Of a stretch of DNA of 64,000 nt, positions 12,069 to 38,520 are shown one piece after another. The stretch lies in the NCBI GenBank assembly GCA_963734995.1, contig CAVTJD010000005.1, positions 462,014 through 526,013 on the forward strand. Direction: 5' to 3'. Position numbers and translations under genes: made by a program. The notes under the pieces were generated by a model, which was given only the letters and a program-made list of their open reading frames with translations, was not told the origin of the DNA and did not search any database. This DNA comes from an uncultured Chloroflexia bacterium (GTDB lineage Bacteria > Chloroflexota > Limnocylindria > Limnocylindrales > CSP1-4). The stretch's first letter is position 1, and each line of letters begins with the position of its first letter.

Positions 12069-12172
12069 TCACCGCCGCGCGGTTGCCGGCGTCACCGGTC
12101 GGCGCGGGATTCACCACCCCCATCGCCGGGCCGACGGTCGTTGCCCACCACCCGTTCGCTACCATTGCCGCG

Positions 12173-14965
12173 ATGTCGAGCCCCACCTCCGACCCGCCCA
12201 TCCCGTACCTGCCAGCGGCAGAGATCCGGCACCGGTTCCTCGAGTTCTTCGCCGAGCGGGGCCACACGATCGTGCCCAGCGCCAGCCTGGTGCCGGCGGG
12301 CGATCCCACGCTCCTGTTCACCAACGCCGGCATGGTTCAGTTCAAGGACGCGCTGACCGGGGTGGAGAAGCGCGACTACGTGCGGGCGGTCGACTACCAG
12401 CGGGTGCTGCGGGTGGCTGGCAAGCACAACGACTTCGAGGAGGTCGGCCGGACGCCGCGCCACCACACGCTGTTCGAGATGCTCGGCAACTGGAGCTTCG
12501 GCGACTACTTCAAGCGCGACGCGATCCTGTGGGCGTGGCAGTTCCTGACGCGTGACCTGGGCATCCCGGGCGACCGGCTCGCCGCCACGACGTACACCAC
12601 CGACGATGACGCGTACGCGGTCTGGCGCGACGAGATCGGCCTGCCACCCGAGCGGCTGGTCCGCTGGGGCGACTTCCCCGCCGGTGACGAGAAGAACTGG
12701 TGGCGGATGGGCGACATCGGGCCCTGCGGACCGTGCTCGGAGCTCCATTACGATCGCGGCGCGCACCTGTCCGAGGGACCCGAGTGCGTGCCCGACCACA
12801 GCGAGCAGTGTCCCCGCTGGCTCGAGGTCTGGAACCTGGTGTTCATGGAGTTCGAGCTCCATCCTGACCGGAGCCTGACGCCGCTTCCGGCGCCCGGCGT
12901 CGACACGGGCCTGGGCCTCGAGCGGATCGCATCCGTCGTCCAGGGCGTGGCCAGCAACTACGACACCGACCTGTTCGCGCCGATCCACGCACGGATGCGC
13001 GAGCTGCTGGGCCACGACCCGGAGTCGTTCGAGCAGGAACGCTTCAGCTACCAGGTGATCGCCGACCACTCGCGCGCGGTGACGTTCCTGGTGGCTGACG
13101 GCGTGCTGCCGGCCAACGAGGGTCGCGGCTACGTGCTGCGCCGCATCCTGCGCCGTGCCGTGCGCCATGGCCGCCTCCTGGGCCGGACCGAGCCGTTCCT
13201 GGGCGAGACGGCGAAGGTCGTGATCGACACCATGAGCGACGCCTACCCGCATCTGGCCGAGCGCCGCACGGAGATCCTGGGCGCGATCGAGCGCGAGGAG
13301 CGCCAGTTCAACCGGACGCTCGAGGCCGGGACGGCGATGCTGGAGGAGGCGCTGATCCCGCTGACTTCGGCGGAGCGCGTGGTCGGACGTCAGGCGGACA
13401 CGCTCCCGGCCGATGCGCCGGTGCTGCCGGGCGAGGTCGCGTTCCGGCTCCACGACACCTACGGGTTCCCGGTCGATCTCACGGTCGAGCTCGCGGCCGA
13501 GTACGGGGTGCGGACCGATCTGGCCGGGTTCGAGGACGCGCTGGCCGAGCAACGGGAGCGGAGCCGGAGCGGGACCAGGGCCGAGCTGGCCCGCACGGCG
13601 GAGCTCACCTCGCGCTACAACGGGCTGCTCGGACGGACCGGACCGACCGAGTTCCTGGGCTACGAGACGACGGCGGCGGACGGCCGCGTGGTCGCCATCC
13701 TGCGCGACGGCATCGAATACGAGACACTCGCCGCGGTACCCGAGATCGAGCTCCGCGCCGGCGCGGCGGCACGGGCGGAGCTCATCCTCGATCGCACGCC
13801 GTTCTACGCGGAGAGCGGTGGCCAGGTGGCCGACACGGGCGCGATCCGGACACCCGCCGGCGAGCTGCTGTTCGAGGTCGACGACGTCCAGCGGGTGGCC
13901 GGCACGCAGACCGCGGGTCTCACGGTGCACCGCGGCGTGCTCCACGGCAGGGTGGCCGTCGGTGACACCGTGCGGGCCGAGGTCGACGCCGAGCGGCGCG
14001 CACGGACGATGCGCAACCACACCGGCACTCACCTGCTGCACCGTGCGTTGCGCGACGTGGTGGGGGAGCGGGCGCGCCAGGCGGGCTCGCTCGTGCACCC
14101 CGACTACCTGCGCTTCGACTTCCCGTTCGAGCGCGCGCTGACCACCGAGGAGCTGGCCGCGATCGAGGCCGAGGTCCGGCGGGTCGTGCGCGAGGACCGC
14201 CCGGTCACGATCGAATGGATGACGATGGCCGAGGCCCGGGACGCCGGCGCGGACGCGTTCTTCGATGAGAAGTACGGCGACCGGGTGCGGACCATCCGGG
14301 TCGACGGTTTCAGCCACGAGCTGTGCGGCGGGACCCACTGCGGGGCGAGCGGCCAGGTCGGCAACTTCGTGATCACCGGCGAGCGCAGCATCGGCTCCGG
14401 GATGCGCCGCATCGAGGCCGTGACCGGGGACGGTGCCGACCGCCTCATGGACGAGCGGTTCGCGACGCTCGAGCGGGCGGCGGTCGCGGCGGGCGCGCGC
14501 GGGCCGGAGGCGCTCGAGGAGCGGATCACCGCGCTCCAGGACGAGCTGCGCGAGGCGAAGCGACGGCTCAGGTCCGGCGCGGCCGGCGGGCGGCCGAAGT
14601 CGGGCGATCTGGCGGCGCGCGCCGAGGAGCCCGTGCCCGGCATCCGCTTCGTCGGGTGGAGCGGCGACCTGGAGTCGATCGATGCGCTCAAGAGCCTGGC
14701 CAGGGACGTTCGCGGGGCGCTGCCGAGCGGGATCATCGCGCTTGGGCTGGACGCGGACGAGCCGCAGCTGTTCGTGACCGTGAGCGACGATCTGGTCGAG
14801 CGTGGCATCGCGGCCGGGCGGCTCGTCCAGGAGGCAGTGGCGTCGATCGAGGGACGAGGAGGAGGACGACCGCAGATGGCCCAGGGAAAGGGCACCCATC
14901 GGGAGGGGCTCGGGGAGGCGATCGCGGCCGTGCGTGCCGCGGTGGTCCGGGCCGTGACGGCGTGA
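12173..14965 (+). CDS. alaS: alanine--tRNA ligase
   Basis: The class II AlaRS N-terminus (FLEFFAERGHTIVPSASLVP...FTNAGMVQFKD) is present, as are the editing domain and the C-terminal C-Ala domain. A TACCAT hexamer lies 9 nt before the ATG. Confidence 0.95.
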   Translation: MSSPTSDPPIPYLPAAEIRHRFLEFFAERGHTIVPSASLVPAGDPTLLFTNAGMVQFKDALTGVEKRDYVRAVDYQRVLRVAGKHNDFEEVGRTPRHHTLFEMLGNWSFGDYFKRDAILWAWQFLTRDLGIPGDRLAATTYTTDDDAYAVWRDEIGLPPERLVRWGDFPAGDEKNWWRMGDIGPCGPCSELHYDRGAHLSEGPECVPDHSEQCPRWLEVWNLVFMEFELHPDRSLTPLPAPGVDTGLGLERIASVVQGVASNYDTDLFAPIHARMRELLGHDPESFEQERFSYQVIADHSRAVTFLVADGVLPANEGRGYVLRRILRRAVRHGRLLGRTEPFLGETAKVVIDTMSDAYPHLAERRTEILGAIEREERQFNRTLEAGTAMLEEALIPLTSAERVVGRQADTLPADAPVLPGEVAFRLHDTYGFPVDLTVELAAEYGVRTDLAGFEDALAEQRERSRSGTRAELARTAELTSRYNGLLGRTGPTEFLGYETTAADGRVVAILRDGIEYETLAAVPEIELRAGAAARAELILDRTPFYAESGGQVADTGAIRTPAGELLFEVDDVQRVAGTQTAGLTVHRGVLHGRVAVGDTVRAEVDAERRARTMRNHTGTHLLHRALRDVVGERARQAGSLVHPDYLRFDFPFERALTTEELAAIEAEVRRVVREDRPVTIEWMTMAEARDAGADAFFDEKYGDRVRTIRVDGFSHELCGGTHCGASGQVGNFVITGERSIGSGMRRIEAVTGDGADRLMDERFATLERAAVAAGARGPEALEERITALQDELREAKRRLRSGAAGGRPKSGDLAARAEEPVPGIRFVGWSGDLESIDALKSLARDVRGALPSGIIALGLDADEPQLFVTVSDDLVERGIAAGRLVQEAVASIEGRGGGRPQMAQGKGTHREGLGEAIAAVRAAVVRAVTA

Positions 14966-14994: not shown

Positions 14995-16257
14995 ATGGCA
15001 TTCCTGCGACGGCTCTGGGCGAGGGACGAGGAACCGGTACCCGCCGCGTGCACGGCGCTCGACATCGGCACCGAGTACGCGAAGGCGCTGGTGTTCGAGA
15101 TCGACGACACCGGACACGGGACCGTGGTCGGGGCCGGGCGCAAGCGCCAGGGTCTGTCGCACATGCAGTCGGGCACGGTGGCGGACATCGCCGCCGTCGT
15201 CGACAACTGCTCGGTCGCGCTCCAGGAGGCCGAGGAGATGGCCGGCTTCCGACCGACGCAGGTCGTGATCGGGATCGCGGGCGAGCTGGTGAAGGGGTTC
15301 ACGACCACGCTCACCCAGGAGCGGAAGAAGCCCGAGCAGGCGATCGCCGATGCGGAGCTGGTGAAGCTCATCGACAGCGTGCAGCGCGAGGCGATCCGCG
15401 AGGCGGAGCGGTCGATCACCTGGGAGACCGGGCTGCCACACGTCGACGTCCGGCTCGTGCACAGCGCGATCGTGGGCGCCTCGATCGACGGCTATGCGCT
15501 GACCAACCCCGTCGGCTTCCAGGGCCGCCACGTGAAGATCGGGATCTTCAACGCGTTCGCGCCGCTGGTCCACCTGGGTGCCCTCCAGTCCGTCGCCAGC
15601 CAGCTGGACCTGGAGCTGCTCGAGGTGGTCGCCGAGCCGTACGCGGTCGCACGCGTGCTGGGCGCCGAGCAGGTTCGCCAGGCGGGCGCGCTGTTCATCG
15701 ATGTCGGCGGCGGGACCACGGACGTGGCGCTGGTACGGCAGGGCGGGATCGAGGGCACGCGCATGTTCGCCCTGGGCGGCCGCGCGTTCACCAAGTCGAT
15801 CGCCGACCGGCTCGATCTGCCGTTCCCGCGGGCCGAGGCCCTCAAGGTCGACTACGCCCGCGGGCTGGACATCGAGCAGCGCAGCGAGATCGCCGAGATC
15901 GTCCGCGACGACGTGGCCGTGTGGGCCGCCGGCGTGGAGCTGGTGATGGAGGAGCTGGCTGCGGGCGAGATGCTGCCGTCGCGGATCCATCTCTGTGGCG
16001 GCGGCTCGCGCCTGCCCGAGGTCCGCGAGGCGCTCGCGTCCGAGCGGTTCTGGAAGCGCCTGTCGTTCGCCCGGCCGCCCGAGGTCTCGATCATGTCGCC
16101 CGACCAGATCGAGACCATCTCGGATGCGACCGACCTGCTGGTCGATCAGCAGGACGTGACCCCGCTGGGTCTCGCCTACCAGGCGATCGAGCTCCACACG
16201 ACCGAGGATCCGCTCGATGCCGCGCTGCGCCGCGTGCTGCGCGCGATGAAGGTCTAG
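14995..16257 (+). CDS. actin/HSP70-fold ATPase, FtsA/PilM-like
   Basis: It has two actin-like phosphate motifs (ALDIGTEYAKALVFE; LFIDVGGGTTDVALV) and an FtsA-like C-terminal half (IHLCGGGSRLPEV). Confidence 0.7.
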   Translation: MAFLRRLWARDEEPVPAACTALDIGTEYAKALVFEIDDTGHGTVVGAGRKRQGLSHMQSGTVADIAAVVDNCSVALQEAEEMAGFRPTQVVIGIAGELVKGFTTTLTQERKKPEQAIADAELVKLIDSVQREAIREAERSITWETGLPHVDVRLVHSAIVGASIDGYALTNPVGFQGRHVKIGIFNAFAPLVHLGALQSVASQLDLELLEVVAEPYAVARVLGAEQVRQAGALFIDVGGGTTDVALVRQGGIEGTRMFALGGRAFTKSIADRLDLPFPRAEALKVDYARGLDIEQRSEIAEIVRDDVAVWAAGVELVMEELAAGEMLPSRIHLCGGGSRLPEVREALASERFWKRLSFARPPEVSIMSPDQIETISDATDLLVDQQDVTPLGLAYQAIELHTTEDPLDAALRRVLRAMKV

Positions 16258-16378
16258 GCGGATGCCCGCTCGCCCGCCCGTGGCGGCGTCCATGGAGGCC
16301 CCGGCGGGCCATCGTCGGCGGGCGGCGCAGCGGGTTCGACCGGCGGATCGCCGCCGGTCGGGGTAGGCTCGGGCCGGC

Positions 16379-18163
16379 ATGGCCACCATCGTCTATCTCG
16401 ACGCCGAGGACGAGATCACCTCGGCCGCCTCGCGAATCCGCGAGGCGGCCGATGCACGCGTCGGCCTGGTGCTCCCGTTCGGCTCACGCGTCGCGACCTC
16501 GCGGATCAACTTCCGGCTGCTGGCCCGGGAGGCGATGGACAGGGAGCGGCGCCTGGACATCATCGCGCCCGATGCGTCGGCACGCGCCCTGGCCGCCTCG
16601 GCCGGCCTGCCGGTGTTCGCATCGGTCGCCGAGTACGAGCAGGCGCTCGAGGGCGGCGACGCCGCGACGGCGGCCGGTGCGGCGGCTGCCGCGACCGGCG
16701 CGTTCGCGACCGGTGCAGCGATGGGCGGAGCCGCTGACGCGTCATCGCCCAGCGTCCCGGATGGCGGCACGGCCGACCGTGCCGCCGACACGCAGCCGCC
16801 CGACGCAGGATCCGCGGCCGTCGAGACCGAGACCGGCCGCGGCTACCGCGACCTGCCGATCGCCCGACCGGGACGCCGCGTTCCCGTGCGCGCGCTGCTG
16901 ATCGCGCTCCTTGTCGTGCTCGTGCTCGGCGGAGGCGTCGCTGTCGGCGGGTATCTGCTGCTGCCATCGGCGGAGATCACCATCACGCCGCACATCGAGC
17001 CGGTCGGTCCGATCTCGTTCGATGTCCACGCCGACCCGTCGGCGACCTCGGTCGACGCGGAGGCGGGCGTCATCCCCGCGCAGACGCTGACGATCCCCGT
17101 CTCGTCAGAGGGCGAGTTCCCGGCGACCGGGAAGCGGGTCGAGCAGACGGCAGCCCAGGGTGGCGTGCGCTGGACCAACTGCGACCCGACCGCGGCCTAC
17201 ACGATCCCGGCCGGCACCGTGGTCAAGACATCCGATGGTATCGGGTTCACGACCGACGAGCAGGTGTTCCTGCCGGTAGCAGCGCTGAGCGGGACGCCGC
17301 CCAATGTCAAGGTGAAATGCCAGACGAGCGAGGTCAGCGTGACGGCGGCCAAGGACGGCCCCGACGGCAACGTCGATGCGGGCGCGATCAAGGTCGTGCC
17401 GGCACGCTACAACCGCACCGTGATCAGTGTCACCAACCCCGCCGCCACCAAGGGTGGCAGCCGCACCGAGTTCGCCAGGATCAAGCAGGCGGATGTGGAC
17501 GCGGCGGTCGAGCAGCTGACCAAGGACATCGAGGCCCAGTTCGCCGCCGAGGTCGAGAACCCCTCACGGGTGCCGCCCGGCACCACGGCCTTCCCCGACA
17601 CCGCGGTCCTCGGTGACCCTGCTCCCGAGGTCGATCCGGCCACGCTGGTGGGTCAGGAGGTCGACTCGTTCACGCTCCGGATGACCGCGCAGGGGACCGT
17701 GCTCGCGGTCGACCCGGCCCCGGTGGAGTCGATCGCGCGCCAGCGCCTGAACGATCAGGTCGACGCGGGCTATGACCTCGTCGATGGCTCGACGACCGTG
17801 GAGGTCGGTGACGGCGAGGTGGTCGGGGGGGTGGTGACGTTCCCCGTCACCGGATCGGCCAGGGAGCTCCGCCCGGTCGACGGCCCGGCGCTGGAGGCCC
17901 AGGTGCTGGGCCTGTCCGAGGAGGATGCCCGCAACCTGCTCAGTCCCTACGGCGACGTGACGATCGTGCTGTGGCCCGACTGGGTGCATGCCGTGCCCTC
18001 GATCGACCAGCGGGTCACGCTCACGGTCAACGATCCGGTGGACACCGGCCCGTTGGCTTCGCCGGCTGCCTCGGCGTCGCCCGCCTCCGAGCCGCCGGCG
18101 TCGCCCGCATCGGCGTCGCCCGAGGGCGTGGTCGAAGGTCAGCCGGTACCATCCGCCGGATGA
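16379..18163 (+). CDS. single-pass membrane protein: ~170-aa cytoplasmic N-domain, TM helix, large beta-rich extracytoplasmic domain, Pro/Ala/Ser-rich tail
   Basis: A TM segment (LLIALLVVLVLGGGVAVGGYLLL) follows the N-terminal domain. No known family is recognised. The stop overlaps the ruvX start (ATGA). Confidence 0.6.
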   Translation: MATIVYLDAEDEITSAASRIREAADARVGLVLPFGSRVATSRINFRLLAREAMDRERRLDIIAPDASARALAASAGLPVFASVAEYEQALEGGDAATAAGAAAAATGAFATGAAMGGAADASSPSVPDGGTADRAADTQPPDAGSAAVETETGRGYRDLPIARPGRRVPVRALLIALLVVLVLGGGVAVGGYLLLPSAEITITPHIEPVGPISFDVHADPSATSVDAEAGVIPAQTLTIPVSSEGEFPATGKRVEQTAAQGGVRWTNCDPTAAYTIPAGTVVKTSDGIGFTTDEQVFLPVAALSGTPPNVKVKCQTSEVSVTAAKDGPDGNVDAGAIKVVPARYNRTVISVTNPAATKGGSRTEFARIKQADVDAAVEQLTKDIEAQFAAEVENPSRVPPGTTAFPDTAVLGDPAPEVDPATLVGQEVDSFTLRMTAQGTVLAVDPAPVESIARQRLNDQVDAGYDLVDGSTTVEVGDGEVVGGVVTFPVTGSARELRPVDGPALEAQVLGLSEEDARNLLSPYGDVTIVLWPDWVHAVPSIDQRVTLTVNDPVDTGPLASPAASASPASEPPASPASASPEGVVEGQPVPSAG

Positions 18164-18646
18164 GCCGCATCCTGGGCATCGACCTCGGCACGCGACGCAT
18201 CGGTCTGGCGGTCGCTGACGCGGGCATCGGCATCGCCACCCCGCTGACCACCATCCCGCGCGGCTCATCGTCCCATGGCCGATGCCGAGGCGATCGGCCG
18301 GATCTGCGACCGGCAGCAGGTCACAGAGCTCATCGTCGGGCTCCCGATCGATGCCGGCGGCGACGAGGGATCGATGGCGATCGCGGCCCGCGCCTGGGCG
18401 GATGAGATCGGCGGGCTCACCGGCTTGCCGGTCACGCTCCGTGACGAGCGATTGTCCTCGTTCGAGGCCGAGCGCCGGCTGGGTCGCATGCCCCGCGGCC
18501 GGTCGGGAGGACCTCCGTCGCGCGCCCAGCGCAACGCCTTTCGGGCACGGATCGATCGCGAGGCCGCGGCCATCATCCTGCAGGACGAGCTCGACGGTCG
18601 GCGCGCCGCGGCGACCGTCGCCGGTGCGCCGCCGGAGGGTCGGTGA
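18160..18646 (+). CDS. ruvX: Holliday junction resolvase-like RuvX/YqgF, interrupted by a +1 frameshift near 18265-18277
   Basis: The N-terminus MSRILGIDLGTRRIGLAVAD...PLTTIPRG is in one frame. The remainder (ADAEAIGRICDRQQVTELIVGLPIDAGGDEGSMA...DERLSS) is in the +1 frame. Removing one C from a CCC run restores the frame. Confidence 0.8.
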
Positions 18647-20049
18647 GCGTTCGCGGGGGGCGGCCCCCGCGGGACCAGTACGGCCGCGAGCCCCAGGCGA
18701 CGCCGATCCATTCCCCGGCACCGACGCGCCAGACGAACCCCTACCGGCGCACCGGCCGCTACGGACGCGGACCGGGCGACCAGCGGCGGTACTCGGCCTA
18801 CGGTGACGGGAACGGGGGCCTGGGAGGTGTTCTTCGCTTCCTCGTGTTCCTGGTCGTGCTGTCGGCCGCGGTGCTGGTCCTGATGGCCACCGTCGCCCGA
18901 CCGCTCGTCCGTGCGGTGATCGTGCCGTGGGCCTGGGACAATCCGGGCGCCCTGCAGATCGGGTTCGTATCCGACCTCGTTCGCGAGGACCTCGGCCCGG
19001 CGCTCACCGATCCCGCCGGCACGGATCCCACGATCGTGGAGTTCACCGTCGAGTCCGGTGATACCCCGGCCACGCTCGCGCCGAGGCTGGAGGAGGCGGG
19101 GATCATCCGGAGCCAGCGCGCCTTCCTCTACCTCGCCCGGCAGGACGACCTCACGCCCAGGCTCACCGCCGGGCGGTTCTCGCTCGCCCTCAACCTCACG
19201 CCCGGCCAGGTGGTGAACGGGCTGGTCGAGAACCGGATCGTGGTCCAGACGGTCCCGGTCACCTTCCGCGAGGGCCTGCGGGTCGAGCAGATGACCGCGA
19301 AGCTGGAGACGCTCTCGGGCACGAGCGTGGATCCCAAGACCTTCTATGACCTCGCGATGCACCCCACCGACGAGCTGCTGGGCGACTACCCGTGGCTGCT
19401 CGACACGTCGGTCCGGCCCAAGGGCGCCTCGCTCGAGGGTTTCCTCTATCCGGCGACCTACGACCTGCGCGTCGGCGACTCGAAGGCCACGACGGCCGAG
19501 GACCTGATCCGGATGATGCTCGACGCGTTCTACGCGCGGGTGGGCCAGGACCGGCTGGACGTTCCCGAATCACGGGGGCTCAGCTTCCATGAGGTGCTGA
19601 CGCTGGCCTCGATCGTGGAGCGGGAGGCGGTGGTCGATGAGGAGCGGCCGCTCATCGCGGGCGTTTACCAGAACCGCCTCAACCGGAAGAAGTGGCCGAC
19701 GGGCCTGCTCCAGTCCGATCCGACGATCTTCTACACCAACGACACGCTGCAGCTGGACAAGCTCGCCTTCGAGAAATGGCCGACCTACGTGTTCTGGGAC
19801 ACGCTCAAGGAGCAGCTGCCCGTACCGCTCCCCGACGCGCTGGCCGGCTACAACACCTACACGAGCAAGGGGCTGCCGCCCGGTCCGATCTGCTCCCCGT
19901 CGCTGCCCTCGATCGAGGCCGCGCTGCAGCCGAACACCAAGACCGGCTACCTGTTCTTCATCGCGAAGGGGGACGGCAGCGGGACGAGCGCGTTCGCGAA
20001 GACGAAGGCGCAGCACGACAAGAACGTTGCCAAGTATGGCGGCAACTGA
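18643..20049 (+). CDS. mltG: endolytic murein transglycosylase MltG (YceG family)
   Basis: It has an N-terminal TM helix and a YceG domain. The GTG start overlaps the ruvX stop (GTGA). Confidence 0.85.
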   Translation: MSVRGGRPPRDQYGREPQATPIHSPAPTRQTNPYRRTGRYGRGPGDQRRYSAYGDGNGGLGGVLRFLVFLVVLSAAVLVLMATVARPLVRAVIVPWAWDNPGALQIGFVSDLVREDLGPALTDPAGTDPTIVEFTVESGDTPATLAPRLEEAGIIRSQRAFLYLARQDDLTPRLTAGRFSLALNLTPGQVVNGLVENRIVVQTVPVTFREGLRVEQMTAKLETLSGTSVDPKTFYDLAMHPTDELLGDYPWLLDTSVRPKGASLEGFLYPATYDLRVGDSKATTAEDLIRMMLDAFYARVGQDRLDVPESRGLSFHEVLTLASIVEREAVVDEERPLIAGVYQNRLNRKKWPTGLLQSDPTIFYTNDTLQLDKLAFEKWPTYVFWDTLKEQLPVPLPDALAGYNTYTSKGLPPGPICSPSLPSIEAALQPNTKTGYLFFIAKGDGSGTSAFAKTKAQHDKNVAKYGGN

Positions 20050-21992: not shown

Positions 21993-23474
21993 TCAGGCCG
22001 GGAGCTGGCAGATCCGGTCCATGACGGCCTCCACGCCATGCTGGATCGCCAGCGCCTCGCTGCTGGTGCGCCCGATCGCCGTCATGCCCATTCGGCCGTC
22101 GATCGCGAGCCCGGACAGCATGTGGAGCACGGCGCCGGTGTGGGTCTCGTGCGTGAACAGCAGGTCCGCCTTGCGCAGGGCCTCGATCACCCGGGTCGGA
22201 TCGAGCCCCAGCCACAGCGGATCGACCAGGTTGTCGGTCGCCCCGTAGCACCGCGCCGAGCCGTCCTCGTAGGCGACCCACGTGCCGCGCGCGGCGTCGT
22301 ACCGGCCCGGGATCAGGTTCCGCATCGCTGAGTACGGGTGGGTCGTGCCGCCCTTGCGCAGGTTGATCTCGATCGCGTACACATCCCAGTCGCCCGCCTC
22401 GTTCGTGGCGGCAACGAAGTCCACCGCGACCCGTCCGAGCGCGCCGGCCCGGGCCAGCCGCTCGCCGATCGCCAGGGCGTGCGCCGCCAGGATCGGGGCG
22501 TAGGCGGGATCGGCGGGGAACCGGCAGCCGAGGTAGATCTGTGAATCCCTCCCGCCCAGGACCTGCTCGTGGGTGGCGAGGACCTGGACCGAGCCATCGG
22601 GCCGGATGTCGAACTGGGCGCTGGGGCTCGAGAACCGGGTGCCGCCGATGCGCTCCTCGACGATGCCGCCGGCACGCAGGTCGGCGAGGTACCACTCGGG
22701 CAGCGTCTCGAGCGTGGCCCGGAGCCACATCCGGGCGTCCACGGCTGCGTCCATCGGACGCAGGTCGATCACCTGGTTCCCGTCACCGGCGCCGCTGTCG
22801 TCATGCTTGATGACGACGCCCTCGACGGCCGGCCGCCGATCGCGGATCTCGCCCACCGCATCGATCAGGTCATCGACGGTGCGCACATCCTCGACGCCCA
22901 CCGGCACGGGCACGCCAGCCTCGCGGAACAGGCGCCGGCCCTCGCTCTTGAAGCCGAGGTGGCGGAGCTCCGGCCGCGTGCCGTTGATGGGGATGTCGAG
23001 CGCGAGCGCCAGCCGCGTCTCGTGGTCGGTGACGTTCCACGCCTCGATCAGTGCTGGCCGTCCGCGGACCAGGGCGCGGATCTGCGAGAGTCGCTCGGGA
23101 TCGTCCGCAAGCTTGCAGGCGACCGGGTTGAGCGTTCCGTCATCCACGTCGAGCACGTCGAACCGGGCGTCCTGCTGCATGTCCTCGCGCATCAGCGAGG
23201 TGTAGTAGTCGAGAATCTCCGGCGCCGGCGAGCGCGTGGACACGTAGATGACCTCGCACGCGGGGATGCGCGCCGAGACCAGCAAGCCGTTGAGATAGCG
23301 GTGCTCGAGCGAGAACACGCGGTCGCGGTAGTGCGACAGGAGCGACTCCGAGATGCTGTACGAGGGGAGCACCACGAGCACGTGGTCGACCGTCGAGCCC
23401 TGCCGGTTGGCGCCGAGCGCGGGACCCAGCTTTGCCTGCAGTCGATCGAACGCGTCAGGCATCGCCTCGGCCAT
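21993..23474 (-). CDS. ATP-grasp domain protein (pre-ATP-grasp N-domain; putative carboxylate-amine/peptide ligase)
   Basis: The central ATP-grasp region is FREAGVPVPVGVEDVRTVDDLIDAVGEIRDRRPAVEGVVIKHDDSGAGDG. The C-terminal motif is VDFVAATNEAGDWDVYAIEINLRKGG. Confidence 0.65.
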   Translation of the reverse strand: MAEAMPDAFDRLQAKLGPALGANRQGSTVDHVLVVLPSYSISESLLSHYRDRVFSLEHRYLNGLLVSARIPACEVIYVSTRSPAPEILDYYTSLMREDMQQDARFDVLDVDDGTLNPVACKLADDPERLSQIRALVRGRPALIEAWNVTDHETRLALALDIPINGTRPELRHLGFKSEGRRLFREAGVPVPVGVEDVRTVDDLIDAVGEIRDRRPAVEGVVIKHDDSGAGDGNQVIDLRPMDAAVDARMWLRATLETLPEWYLADLRAGGIVEERIGGTRFSSPSAQFDIRPDGSVQVLATHEQVLGGRDSQIYLGCRFPADPAYAPILAAHALAIGERLARAGALGRVAVDFVAATNEAGDWDVYAIEINLRKGGTTHPYSAMRNLIPGRYDAARGTWVAYEDGSARCYGATDNLVDPLWLGLDPTRVIEALRKADLLFTHETHTGAVLHMLSGLAIDGRMGMTAIGRTSSEALAIQHGVEAVMDRICQLPA

Positions 23475-33198: not shown

Positions 33199-33833
33199 TT
33201 GCTCGACATCCAGCCGATCGACTTCGTCTGATCGCGATCTTCCTGCTGGTCGCGTTCCCGGTCCACGAGTTCGCGCATGCCGCGACCGCGTATACGCTCG
33301 GTGACGCGACCGCGAAGCTATTCGGACGCCTGACCCTCAATCCGGTCGCGCATTTCGACCCGATGGGCGGCCTGATGACCGTGATCTCGATCCTGTTCAG
33401 CCCGATCCTGTTCGGCTGGGCGAAGCCGACCCCGGTCAATCCGGCCAACCTGAGGGATCGACGGAATGGCGAGCTGTACGTTGCGCTGGCCGGCCCGATC
33501 TCGAACCTGTTGATGGCGGTTCTCGGGTGCGTTCGTCTCTGCGCCGCTCTGCTCGCCGCAGTACGCGGGCGGCTCTTCCACGTCGGGCTCTACACGGGTC
33601 TGTTCCTGTTCGTGTTGTTCAACGTGGCCCTGGCGTTCTTCAACCTGATCCCGATCCCGCCGCTCGACGGCTCGGTCGTGCTGTTCCGGTTCCTGTCGCC
33701 GAGCCAGGTGTGGCAGATCCGGCCCTTCCTGGCGCAGTACGGCATGTTCATCGTGATCGCCGCCGTGCTGGTGCTCGGGGCAGGCCCTGGGCACGCTGAT
33801 CTTCAATGTCTGCAGTGTCCTGGTGGGCGCTAA
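33199..33833 (+). CDS. small site-2 protease (peptidase M50) family protein; N-terminal start in a different frame (frameshift ~33225-33232)
   Basis: HEFAHA (HExxH) and NLIPIPPLDG motifs are present. The HExxH frame has no ATG/GTG/TTG back to the upstream stop. A TTG at 33199 in the +1 frame gives MLDIQPIDFV, and a single C insertion after ttcgtc (gtctga -> gtcctga) would join the two frames. Confidence 0.7.
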
Positions 33834-34303
33834 GGCCCGCCAGCTCCGTGTGCATCTCGTTGCCCGAGTGCATCCGGAGGAGCGTGTCGCGCTGGCAGCC
33901 TGGCTGCGACCGGCCGAGCTGGCGCTGTTCGACGGCATGCACGTCGCCGACCAGCGTCACGGGCTGGACGTGATGGCGTTCCTGCGGCGGACGGGCGTGC
34001 GCGACCGCGACGTGCTGGTCGCAGGCCTGCTCCATGACTGCGCCAAGGGCGACACGGGCGCCGGGCCGCGGATCGCGTGGTCGCTGGGCGAGGGGTTCGG
34101 CGGCTGGGTGGTCGACGTCGCACGATGGGTGCCCGGCTGGAGCGGCCCGCTCGACCGGCTCCGCGATCATGCCGAGGCCTCGGCGGCGATGCTCGAGACG
34201 GCAGGCCTGTCGTCGCTTGCCGTCGACCTCGTTCGATCACCAGGCAGCCCCGCGCGACACGCAGTATGGGGCCCGCTTCCACGCCGCGGACGAGGCGAGC
34301 TGA
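33823..34303 (+). CDS. HD-domain phosphohydrolase family protein (3' end/frame uncertain; runs in frame into scpA without a stop)
   Basis: The HD motif is MHVADQRHGLDV...LVAGLLHDCAKG. It has a GTG start. The alternative frame ends in a TGA overlapping the scpA ATG. Confidence 0.6.
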
Positions 34304-35169
34304 TGACGATCGCCGCATCGCCGTCGATCGCGTTCGGGGATGGGCGGCGACCCGAGGCCGCCACGCGGGTGACGCTGCCCGCGTTCGACGGGCCGCTGGC
34401 GCTGCTGCTGACGCTCATCGAGGCGCGCCAGCTCGACGTGCTGACCGTGCCCCTGGGTGCGCTCGCCGAGGCCTATCTGGACGCCCTCGCGACGCTCGAC
34501 GAGGACCGGATGGGGAACGTGTCGGCGTTCGTGGCGATCGCCAGCCAGCTGATCCTGATCAAGTCGCGAGCCCTGCTGCCGAGGCACACGGACGATGGCG
34601 CGGTCGCGCTGCCGGACGACGGCCCCGACCCCGAGGCCGAGCTCCGGGCGCGGCTCATCCTGTACCGCGCCTTCCGTGACGCGGGCGCGCTGCTGCTCGA
34701 CGAGGCGCAGCGGCGCGTGGGCCTGTTCCATCGCGAGGCAGGCACGGCACGGGTCGCCGGGCTTGCCGGTGCGCGGCCGGCCGAGACCGAGCCGCTCTCC
34801 GTCGCGCTGCTCACCGACGCGCTCGACGGCCTGGCCCGGATCGTTCCGCCGCCCCCACCACCGCCCGAGACGATCCGCCGGACCGTGACCCTGACCTCGC
34901 GAGCGGCGATCATTCGCGACGCGCTGCGCGGCGCCCCGGCGATCGTCCTGCAGGAGCTGCTGCACGGCGTCCGCGATCGGGTCGTGGTCGCGGTCACCTT
35001 CCTGGCCATGCTTGAGCTCATGAAGCGACGCGAGATCGTGGTCGAGCAGGCCGAGCCGTGGGGCCCGATCGTCGCGCGCCGGACCACGGCGGAGGAGCGG
35101 GCCGCTGCCGGGCTGCCGACCGTCGACGAGGAGGCGCCGCTGGACGAGTCGCTGGGGTCGTTCGCATGA
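34303..35169 (+). CDS. scpA: segregation and condensation protein A
   Basis: It contains PAFDGPLALLLTLIEARQLDVLTVPLGALAEAYLDAL. Confidence 0.85.
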   Translation: MTIAASPSIAFGDGRRPEAATRVTLPAFDGPLALLLTLIEARQLDVLTVPLGALAEAYLDALATLDEDRMGNVSAFVAIASQLILIKSRALLPRHTDDGAVALPDDGPDPEAELRARLILYRAFRDAGALLLDEAQRRVGLFHREAGTARVAGLAGARPAETEPLSVALLTDALDGLARIVPPPPPPPETIRRTVTLTSRAAIIRDALRGAPAIVLQELLHGVRDRVVVAVTFLAMLELMKRREIVVEQAEPWGPIVARRTTAEERAAAGLPTVDEEAPLDESLGSFA

Positions 35170-36849: not shown

Positions 36850-38520
36850 ATGCCCAGCACACCGGCTCCGCGCAGCGCACGACCCGGCGGTAGCCGCACG
36901 ACGGCGCGAAGGAGGCGTTCCGGGATCGTGGTCGCGCTCGATGGACCCGCCTCATCGGGCAAGAGCAGCGTGGGCGCTGCTGCGGCCGGCCGGCTCGGCC
37001 TCCGCTTCCTCGACACCGGGCTGCTGTATCGGGCGCTGACCGCGCTGGCGCTGCGCGAGAACGTGGCGACCGGCGACGCGGTCGGGCTCGTCGAGCTCGT
37101 GGATCGGATCAGCCTCACCGATGACGGGACCGGGCGCCTCACCCGGGTGATGATCGATGGCGCCGATGCCACCGGCGAGGCCCGCGGCCCGGCGGTCGAC
37201 GCAGCTGTGTCGGCCGTGTCTCGCCTGGCCCCGGTGCGATCCGCGCTGCTGGCGCGTCAGCGCGAGCTCGCGAAAACCGGCGACATCGTGGTCGCCGGGC
37301 GCGACATCGGAACGATCGTGCTGCCCGACGCCGATCTCAAGCTGTTCCTCGACGCGTCGGTGGAAGAGCGGGCGGCGCGGCGGATCGAGGAACGGGGGCT
37401 CGATCCCGCAGGGAAGGAGGCGGCAGCGGTTCGCGAGCAGCTTCGCGCCCGCGATGCACAGGATCGGTCGCGCCTGGTGGCGCCGCTCCGCGCGGCCGAC
37501 GACGCGACCATCATCACCACGGACGGGTACGCGTTCGAGCACACGATCGACGTCGTCACCGACGCGATCTCGGCGGCAGAGGCGGCGCTGAGACCGCGGC
37601 GCAATGCGACCAGGGAGGCGCAGCCACCCGGCGATGCACCATTGGCGAATGGCGCGCCCCCGACGCCCTCGCCGTCGGACCCGCCCCCGGCTGCCCCCTC
37701 GGCCTCGCCGCCGCCCGCGCCGACGGCTTCGCCGAGCCCGCCGGCCAGGGACTCGAAGCGTCCCACCGTGTTCGAGGTCGCGATGCGCCTCGACAACGAC
37801 CAGACCCTGCTGATCCGGATGATCGCGCTCATCTCGCGCATCGGTGCCCGTCTGTTCGCGAACGTCCGGGTCGAGGGCCTGGGCCGGATCCCCAGGACGG
37901 GCCCGGTGATCCTGGCGATCAACCATGCCTCGAACCTGGACTCGTTCGTGACCGGAGCCTGGATCACCCCCGCGCTGCGCCGGCGCCGGATCCACTGGCT
38001 GGGCAAGCGCGAGCTGTTCGAGTGGCCCGTGTTCGGCTGGCTGACCGCCCGCGGGGGCGTCCATCCGGTGGAGCGGGGAGCGGCTGACGTCGAGGCCTAC
38101 CGGCTGGCAACCAGGATCCTCGAGCGGGGGTACGTGCTGCTCATCTTCCCCGAAGGCACGCGCAGCCCGACCGGTGGCCTCCAGGAGGCCAGGGACGGGA
38201 TGGCGGCGCTCGCCATGCGCACGGGTGCCACCGTCGTGCCCATCGGCGTCAACGACTCGGACCGCGTCTGGCCGAAGCATCGCAAGATCCCGCTGCCGAT
38301 CCCGCGACGCACCGTGCGGGTCCGCGTCGGTGAGCCGTTCAAGGTCGCCGACCTCATCCCGGACGGGACCGATCGCCGGGCAGCCAAGCGGCTCGCCACC
38401 AGCGCGATCATGGGCCGCATCGCCGCGCTGCTCGAGCCACGGCAGCGGGGCTTCTACGCCGATGCGGTTCCCGCGTCCGACGATGGTGACGCCGGCACCA
38501 CGGACACCCCATCGGGCTGA
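36850..38520 (+). CDS. cmk: fusion protein: cytidylate kinase (N-terminal) :: Pro-rich linker :: 1-acyl-sn-glycerol-3-phosphate acyltransferase (PlsC/LPLAT, C-terminal)
   Basis: The Cmk P-loop is IVVALDGPASSGKSSV. The linker is PPTPSPSDPPPAAPSASPPPAPTASPSPP. The LPLAT motifs are NHASNLD and FPEGTRS. It is a single continuous ORF. Confidence 0.85.
   Translation: MPSTPAPRSARPGGSRTTARRRRSGIVVALDGPASSGKSSVGAAAAGRLGLRFLDTGLLYRALTALALRENVATGDAVGLVELVDRISLTDDGTGRLTRVMIDGADATGEARGPAVDAAVSAVSRLAPVRSALLARQRELAKTGDIVVAGRDIGTIVLPDADLKLFLDASVEERAARRIEERGLDPAGKEAAAVREQLRARDAQDRSRLVAPLRAADDATIITTDGYAFEHTIDVVTDAISAAEAALRPRRNATREAQPPGDAPLANGAPPTPSPSDPPPAAPSASPPPAPTASPSPPARDSKRPTVFEVAMRLDNDQTLLIRMIALISRIGARLFANVRVEGLGRIPRTGPVILAINHASNLDSFVTGAWITPALRRRRIHWLGKRELFEWPVFGWLTARGGVHPVERGAADVEAYRLATRILERGYVLLIFPEGTRSPTGGLQEARDGMAALAMRTGATVVPIGVNDSDRVWPKHRKIPLPIPRRTVRVRVGEPFKVADLIPDGTDRRAAKRLATSAIMGRIAALLEPRQRGFYADAVPASDDGDAGTTDTPSG

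Follow-up and report, generated by a model that had tools for sequence, protein, structure and literature searches.

What do two genes of the same strand do between alaS and ruvX in the genome of an uncultured bacterium of the Chloroflexota? The question was raised by a preliminary description of a 64,000-nucleotide stretch of its DNA (contig CAVTJD010000005.1, positions 462,014 to 526,013; hereafter the window), according to which the first of the two open reading frames (ORFs), ORF1, encodes an actin-fold ATPase of the FtsA/PilM type and the second, ORF2, a large membrane protein that could not be placed in a known family. We confirmed both ORFs (Table 1), and their GC content at third codon positions (0.94 for ORF1 and 0.89 for ORF2) was similar to that of the flanking housekeeping genes. 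The results set out below lead us to propose that, in the class Limnocylindria (Chloroflexota), ORF1 and ORF2 form a housekeeping module specific to that lineage, in which a cytoplasmic scaffold would be linked to the envelope, and to this reading we assign a probability of about one half. A full-text literature search returned no paper on the pair.

ORF1 is a divergent member of the FtsA family

The assignment of ORF1 to the actin-fold ATPases was borne out by a match to the Pfam FtsA model PF14450 (61 bits, cut-off 31.8, amino acids 234–373) and by invariant ATP-binding motifs that align with those of FtsA; judging from these motifs, the protein probably binds ATP. In a search against the sequences in PDB, the FtsA proteins of Vibrio, Xenorhabdus and E. 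coli came out on top (2.5e-15 to 7.6e-11), and a profile of the ORF1 family aligned with E. coli FtsA over amino acids 19–402 at 28% identity (hhalign probability 98%). ORF1 has the same fold and domain order as FtsA (TIGR01174, PF14450; structures 1E4F, 4A2A and 7Q6F) over almost its whole length. It has no insert where actin and MreB carry subdomain 1B. Where FtsA has subdomain 1C, it carries a candidate counterpart, a segment of ~70 amino acids that gives a gapped alignment with the FtsA 1C region and contains ~14 extra residues. Searched alone against Pfam, this insert matched nothing, SHS2_FTSA included. The AlphaFold2 (AF2) model of ORF1 was poor, with a predicted local distance difference test (pLDDT) score of 53.6 from an input alignment of 18 homologues that were 84–95% identical; a Foldseek search with this model, used as a rough guide, placed FtsA structures in the top 12 ranks, followed by PilM, EutJ and MreB.

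Had ORF1 been an ordinary FtsA and ORF2 a plain envelope protein of a known family, the pair would have been unremarkable in the terms of the preliminary description. On the NCBIfam FtsA model TIGR01174, however, it scored 110.1 bits over model positions 3–257 of 371, below the cut-off of 175.85, and a distant orthologue (L081) scored 94.7 bits over the same positions, whereas five canonical FtsAs (from E. coli, B. velezensis, Leptospira, C. jejuni and S. aureus, each annotated beside ftsZ or ftsQ) scored 273–536 bits over positions 1–371. An all-against-all BLAST comparison gave 44–70 bits between ORF1 and the canonical FtsAs, to which it is 21–28% identical, versus 112–268 bits among the canonical FtsAs themselves. 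Relative to all five, ORF1 lacks 18 residues at the hairpin of subdomain 2B, where R286 of E. coli is situated, and the basic and aromatic segment that extends the N terminus of ORF1 has no counterpart in any of them. Because of the low TIGR01174 and BLAST scores and the 2B hairpin deletion, we conclude that ORF1 represents a separate and divergent line within the FtsA family and is no canonical FtsA.

Other families of the same fold matched less well. Among the NCBIfam models, EutJ scored 54 bits, MreB (TIGR00904) 29.2 bits against a cut-off of 365.75, and PilM (TIGR01175) 25.6 bits against a cut-off of 133. The weaker Pfam matches were to MreB, EutA, PilM and HSP70, with the PilM family PF11104 at 20.4 bits (cut-off 27) and the MreB_Mbl match confined to amino acids 195–270. 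The weak matches of the EutJ and DnaK models over the 2A region would suit a chaperone-like or enzyme-reactivating ATPase of the Hsp70 or EutJ type, which would not be cytoskeletal. We consider this highly improbable, because the FtsA score is far higher (110 versus 54 bits), FtsA alone gives a full-length alignment, and ORF1 lacks a substrate-binding domain, ends in an amphipathic helix and is paired with a membrane protein of its own.

That helix (LDAALRRVLRAMKV) aligns with the membrane anchors of the five canonical FtsAs and is near-invariant in about 70 loci. Its hydrophobic moment is 0.68 and its net charge +3, compared with 0.57 and +3 for the membrane anchor of E. coli FtsA. To reach beyond the class, we scanned metagenomes for the motif INFRLLARE written in low-GC codons; a phosphoglycerate mutase gene gave the single match, which is due to chance.

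ORF2 is a single-pass membrane protein with a predicted baseplate-like outer domain

The AF2 model of ORF2 was good (mean pLDDT 81.7). Of the topology that had been anticipated for this protein, the single transmembrane segment, the beta-rich outer domain and the Pro/Ala/Ser tail all stood, but the supposed cytoplasmic domain of 170 amino acids turned out to be a 92-residue fold followed by a disordered linker of ~75 residues. The N-terminal domain was modelled as a four-stranded alpha/beta fold, and the structures nearest to it were STAS-type and CoA-ligase subdomains. The linker is 21% identical among homologues and variable in length, and in both model and alignment it looks like a tether. 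The transmembrane helix is the sole strongly hydrophobic segment of the protein (the top 19-residue Kyte-Doolittle window, which starts at amino acid 172, has a value of 2.74), and because basic residues (the cluster RPGRRVPVR) precede it, the N terminus is predicted to lie inside the cell.

An FtsA-like actin-fold ATPase whose gene adjoins that of a single-pass membrane protein recalls PilM and PilN, in which the cytoplasmic N terminus of PilN binds PilM. Because PilM structures were the next-best structural matches of ORF1 after FtsA, and weak PilM matches were present in both Pfam and NCBIfam, we considered whether the pair might serve a type IV pilus, a competence system or a secretion machine as an inner-membrane platform in the manner of PilM and PilN. 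Such a platform is very unlikely: the TIGR01175 score of ORF1 falls far short of its cut-off, and no pilN, pilO, pilQ, pilT, pilB or pilin genes lie near the pair in any locus examined. Furthermore, ORF2 begins directly with a folded 92-residue domain on a long linker and not with the short, free N-terminal peptide of PilN, and its outer domain is baseplate-like and not of the ferredoxin-like fold found in PilN and PilO.

ORF2, which had not been assigned to any family, can be placed at least in part. It matched the Pfam family Baseplate_J (PF04865) with 35.1 bits (cut-off 21.1) over profile positions 17–113 of 255, and PHROG 6, a baseplate wedge subunit, at 2.1e-13; the motifs GPxGNV and NPxATxGG and residues G327, N331, V332, N353, G359 and G360 are invariant among the aligned homologues. 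In Foldseek searches, the outer domain aligned with wedge proteins of 348–404 residues over 340–380 columns at a high root-mean-square deviation. Because these alignments cover nearly the entire wedge proteins, the whole outer domain may be wedge-like, whereas the high deviation indicates that its domain arrangement differs from theirs. On the strength of profiles and model, we take the outer domain to be a remote homologue of the baseplate wedge proteins of phages and contractile injection systems (gpJ/gp47/gp6 type; PF04865; structures 8KEA, 9G8S and 9KI1), which have the same beta-barrel core and, like it, contain the motifs GPxGNV and NPxxTxGG. Unlike these proteins, ORF2 is membrane-anchored, has a cytoplasmic domain, lies in a housekeeping operon without tail genes, and shows no BLAST-level similarity to any phage genome, with only ~110 residues detectable by sequence profiles. 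Because Baseplate_J is not an envelope family, the match makes ORF2 more unusual.

Nor did ORF2 prove to be a plain PASTA or POTRA protein, the other ordinary identity that had been envisaged: isolated regions of its outer domain gave no Pfam match to POTRA, SPOR or PASTA domains at E values up to 10. The Pfam model of GlxA from Streptomyces lividans (beta-barrel domain PF21110; structure 4UNM) scored 22 bits, below its threshold of 27, and ORF2 has no counterpart of the catalytic domain of GlxA, a kelch-propeller protein that acts as a radical copper oxidase.

Two further features of the part of ORF2 beyond the membrane differ between closer and more distant relatives. The cysteines at amino acids 268 and 314 (at about 17180 and 17318) in the outer barrel are invariant in 20 closer relatives and replaced in distant ones, a pattern that fits a lineage-specific extracytoplasmic disulfide. 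A P-x-P-S-G/A ending of the C-terminal tail is likewise kept in the closer relatives, while distant ones are without the whole tail, which could be a wall-spanning or processing signal.

The pair is a fixed component of the alaS–ruvX–mltG operon

The position of the pair between alaS and ruvX is conserved in related genomes. In a scan with one genome per species, 486 genomes encoded a relative of ORF2, and we examined the loci of the best 80 of these, all of which were metagenome-assembled genomes (MAGs) of Chloroflexota, mostly labelled Limnocylindrales. Every locus that was long enough had the order alaS–ORF1–ORF2–ruvX–mltG on one strand, and pepP and efp were also among the neighbours. The same gene order was present in the most distant representatives that we reached, in which ORF2 was 35% and ORF1 71% identical. 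A 90%-clustered database contained 2052 ORF2 homologues with the same Pfam content, the named ones all from Chloroflexota or Candidatus Limnocylindrales MAGs, and an exhaustive search for ORF2 gave 326 representative clusters at E values up to 1e-30, the best 150 of which share its architecture.

As had been described, the pair sits inside the operon, with gene junctions that overlap or are very short. ORF1 starts at 14995, shortly after the end of alaS at 14965; the TGA stop codon of ORF2 (18161–18163) overlaps the ATG of ruvX (18160–18162) as ATGA; and ruvX and mltG overlap at 18643–18646. The spacer between ORF1 and ORF2 has a median length of 10 nt in relatives, with a minority at 60–207 nt. 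Scanning the window from 11 to 22.5 kb, we found no terminator-like sites on the + strand and no match to an Rfam family.

Homologues of ORF1 are 84–95% identical among the 120 best matches, and ORF1 is 78–95% identical across 77 loci. Median identity to the window proteins was 87.6% for ORF1, 80.6% for AlaS, 78.5% for MnmA, 67.3% for EF-P, 67% for RuvX, 59% for MltG and 46.6% for ORF2, and the identity of ORF1 exceeded that of AlaS in 62 of 63 loci and that of EF-P in 35 of 35. The pair is under strong purifying selection, and its conservation is far beyond chance. We conclude that it is a fixed, vertically inherited and strongly selected component of the operon and not a mobile insertion.

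This bears on another explanation of the Baseplate_J domain and of the structural match to phage wedge proteins, namely that ORF2, alone or with ORF1, was left behind by a prophage or contractile injection system or arrived recently as a mobile insertion, and plays no core part in the cell. A tblastn search with the ORF2 outer domain found nothing in 50,697 phage genomes, no relatives of ORF2 were found in viral contigs, and a search for defence systems gave no match. Sheath, tube, gp25 and gpI genes were absent from the neighbourhood of ORF2, both in the window and in the related loci. In addition, the pair resembles its flanks in GC content and codon bias, occupies the identical position in the best 80 of the 486 species genomes with strong conservation, and includes in ORF2 a transmembrane helix and a cytoplasmic domain that are not found in baseplate proteins. 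A remnant or recent arrival is therefore exceedingly unlikely.

Databases are divided over what to call these proteins. Homologues of ORF1 are named 'cell division protein FtsA' at JGI and 'cell division FtsA domain-containing protein' or 'rod shape-determining protein' at NCBI, and the other names in use for proteins of the pair are 'FtsA domain-containing', 'baseplate J/gp47 family protein' and 'hypothetical'. Because of the mixed names of the ORF1 family, surveys of ftsA or mreB in Chloroflexota may miscount this gene. The JGI name would be apt if ORF1 were the sole FtsA of the lineage, a membrane tether of the Z-ring that has left the division and cell wall (dcw) cluster and diverged, with ORF2 as a late-divisome stand-in for FtsN or FtsQ/DivIB. 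Such a role would be consistent with the JGI annotation, with the full-length homology of ORF1 to FtsA, which is its closest family, with the resemblance of its C-terminal amphipathic helix to the FtsA membrane anchor, with its very high conservation, which would suit an essential cytoskeletal protein, and with a single-pass partner that parallels FtsA–FtsN (PDB entry 7q6i was among the top structural matches). Against it stand the TIGR01174 score of 110 bits, where canonical FtsAs reach 273–536, the missing 2B hairpin, and the lack of a POTRA or SPOR domain in ORF2; moreover, neither ftsZ nor ftsQ was found in the 64-kb window or in any related locus. In other Chloroflexota, ftsA adjoins ftsZ (PMC10608941), and a canonical copy of ftsA is therefore plausible in Limnocylindria as well. 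This arrangement, together with the position of ORF1 far outside the canonical range, favours a second, paralogous FtsA-like protein, and we regard it as rather unlikely that ORF1 is the only FtsA of these bacteria.

Two database entries had the appearance of gene fusions, one of ORF1 with ORF2 (P0186, 692 amino acids) and one of ORF2 with ruvX (P0012, 720 amino acids). Both run into Arg/Pro-rich out-of-frame stretches and later return to frame, and we rejected them as frameshift chimeras from error-prone MAG assemblies.

A proposed role at the cell envelope

From fold, topology and operon context, we infer that ORF1 and ORF2 make up an envelope or division module, as the preliminary description had ventured. 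Within the actin superfamily, ORF1 would be a specialised derivative of the FtsA branch, held on the inner face of the membrane by its C-terminal amphipathic helix, possibly aided by its N-terminal segment, and would probably form oligomers or filaments, as in other FtsA-family proteins. ORF2 would be its dedicated single-pass partner, with amino acids 1–92 reaching out on the flexible linker to contact ORF1 or its polymer; alternatively, the N-terminal domain of ORF2 might bind the invariant tail of ORF1. The transmembrane helix would carry this link to an outer domain that appears to have been recruited from the baseplate-wedge (gpJ/gp6) fold, which in phages is an oligomerising scaffold. 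Most likely, the module would act with MltG, a cutter of glycan strands whose gene is co-transcribed, in positioning or regulating division or the growth of peptidoglycan.

The presumed partnership would be akin to that of FtsA with the single-pass protein FtsN, although ORF1 lies in the alaS–ruvX–mltG operon and not beside ftsQ or ftsZ. It would also resemble MreB–RodZ, in which an actin homologue is combined with an adaptor made up of a cytoplasmic globular domain, a linker, one transmembrane helix and a beta-rich outer domain, and for which the presence of MltG in the ORF1–ORF2 operon makes a parallel link to peptidoglycan growth plausible. However, ORF1 is of the FtsA type and not an MreB (29 bits on TIGR00904, cut-off 366), the N-terminal domain of ORF2 is alpha/beta and STAS-like whereas that of RodZ is a helix-turn-helix, and the two outer domains are unrelated. 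ZipA, the gammaproteobacterial tether of FtsZ, is generally known to have a small cytoplasmic binding domain, a long disordered linker and one transmembrane helix, as ORF2 does, but the order is reversed in ORF2 (the transmembrane helix of ZipA is N-terminal) and ZipA has no large outer domain; we detected no sequence or fold relation between the two.

Several points weigh against this proposal. The link to MltG is weak, because operon membership is its sole basis and the operon is shared by alaS and ruvX, which are unrelated to the envelope. The 1C-like insert of ORF1 is backed by alignment alone, because the model of the protein is poor. A helix that binds lipid and nothing else would not usually be as nearly invariant as the one at the C terminus of ORF1, which may bind a protein instead. 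Finally, we found no true ORF1–ORF2 gene fusions in databases, and the contact between the two proteins is one that we infer.

A bolder form of the proposal is that the pair is an essential cytoskeletal system, in which an FtsA-derived filament-former is wired to a domesticated baseplate-wedge domain that forms an extracellular ring or lattice, and which organises wall synthesis or division in Limnocylindria in place of, or besides, FtsA–FtsN or MreB–RodZ. We regard this form as speculative and distinctly unlikely.

The locus and its neighbouring genes

The window has a GC content of ~72%, and its genes lie almost without exception on the + strand. The gene order between 8.3 and 22 kb is M13 peptidase, mnmA, alaS, ORF1, ORF2, ruvX, mltG, Xaa-Pro peptidase and efp (Table 1).

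Table 1. Coordinates of ORF1, ORF2, their features and the adjoining genes in the window.
Feature	Position	Strand	Basis or remark
alaS (alanyl-tRNA synthetase), upstream neighbour of ORF1	12170–14965	+	Pfam tRNA-synt_2c, 610 bits; also tRNA_SAD and DHHA1
ORF1, 420 amino acids, divergent FtsA-family actin-like ATPase	14995–16257	+	PF14450, TIGR01174, hhalign
ORF1 N-terminal basic/aromatic segment, MAF[LW]RR[ILF]W..	14995–15033	+	Conserved across loci
ORF1 phosphate-1 motif, ALDIGTEYAK	15055–15084	+	Invariant; aligns with FtsA LEIGTAKV
ORF1 insert at FtsA subdomain 1C position, about amino acids 96–166	15280–15492	+	Alignment with FtsA 1C region
ORF1 phosphate-2 motif, DVGGGTTD	15700–15723	+	Invariant; aligns with FtsA DIGGGTMD
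ORF1 adenosine-binding motif, GGGS	15997–16008	+	G335–G337 invariant, S338 nearly so; aligns with FtsA TGGAA
ORF1 C-terminal amphipathic helix DPLDAALRRVLRAMKV, which may target the membrane or bind a partner	16207–16254	+	Hydrophobic moment, alignment
ORF1–ORF2 spacer, 121 nt	16258–16378	+	No Rfam match, no terminator
ORF2, 594-amino-acid single-pass membrane protein, N terminus inside and C terminus outside (predicted)	16379–18163	+	AF2 model, homologues
ORF2 cytoplasmic alpha/beta domain, amino acids 1–92, best-conserved part of ORF2	16379–16654	+	Model pLDDT 92–96
ORF2 disordered Ala/Gly/Pro-rich linker, about amino acids 93–169	16655–16885	+	pLDDT 29–47
ORF2 transmembrane helix, amino acids 170–195	16886–16963	+	Hydropathy; helix modelled at amino acids 170–193
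ORF2 outer domain, about amino acids 196–555, mostly beta, baseplate-wedge-like	16964–18043	+	AF2 model
ORF2 Baseplate_J core, amino acids 253–364, with GPxGNV and NPxATxGG	17135–17470	+	Pfam PF04865
ORF2 Pro/Ala/Ser-rich disordered C-terminal tail, ending PVPSAG	18044–18160	+	pLDDT <50
ruvX (YqgF-type nuclease)	18160–18646	+	Pfam RuvX in two frames
mltG (YceG-like endolytic transglycosylase)	18643–20049	+	Pfam YceG, 231.6 bits; TIGR00247, 158 bits

In the window, ruvX is frameshifted by one base near 18265–18275, in the sequence TCGTCCCATGGCC. The Pfam RuvX model matched in different frames at 18160–18405 (profile positions 2–36) and 18275–18646 (profile positions 39–133), the matching parts being the N-terminal 36 and the C-terminal 123 residues. 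The gene is intact, with 152–176 codons, in every relative that we examined. The frameshift is probably a homopolymer sequencing error, although it could reflect a real pseudogene. The co-translation of ORF2 and ruvX that had been deduced from the ATGA overlap thus holds for the lineage but, because of the frameshift in the assembly, is uncertain for this particular sequence.

Elsewhere in the window, a single ORF of 556 amino acids (36850–38520) combines a cytidylate kinase domain (amino acids 28–240) with a PlsC-type acyltransferase domain (amino acids 339–467), and is either a cmk–acyltransferase fusion or the product of a sequencing error that joins two genes. A 493-amino-acid ATP-grasp protein of the peptide-ligase type, with a PGM1-like C-terminal domain, is encoded on the − strand at 21993–23474; gene calling by codon bias gave three − strand candidates in the whole window, of which this is the sole one within 5–32 kb. 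Its 3′ end apparently runs into the start annotated for xseA, and no domain was matched within the N-terminal ~100 residues of the xseA product. The scpA ORF (33823–35169) has 448 amino acids with the ScpA domain limited to amino acids 198–414, so that either the protein has a long N-terminal extension or its true start lies further downstream. Just upstream of it is a short M50-peptidase-like ORF (33363–33833), whose match to its family model was confined to the C-terminal part of that model.

Significance

Actin homologues that reach the envelope via a single-pass partner, as in FtsA–FtsN, MreB–RodZ and PilM–PilN, have a central place in cell division, cell shape and the machines of the cell surface. 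Such pairings are a known theme, and what is new here is the architecture of the ORF2 partner. A further pair of this kind would widen the theme by a new partner architecture and by a conservation above that of a tRNA synthetase, and the outer domain of ORF2 would exemplify a phage baseplate fold taken over for housekeeping. If the bolder form of the proposal, that of a cytoskeleton with a domesticated baseplate, were true, a phage baseplate protein would for the first time be seen to have taken on a core function in a bacterial cell. Soils and lakes are rich in Limnocylindria, and since the cell biology of these bacteria is, to our knowledge, almost entirely undescribed, the ORF1–ORF2 pair offers a concrete and testable entry into it.

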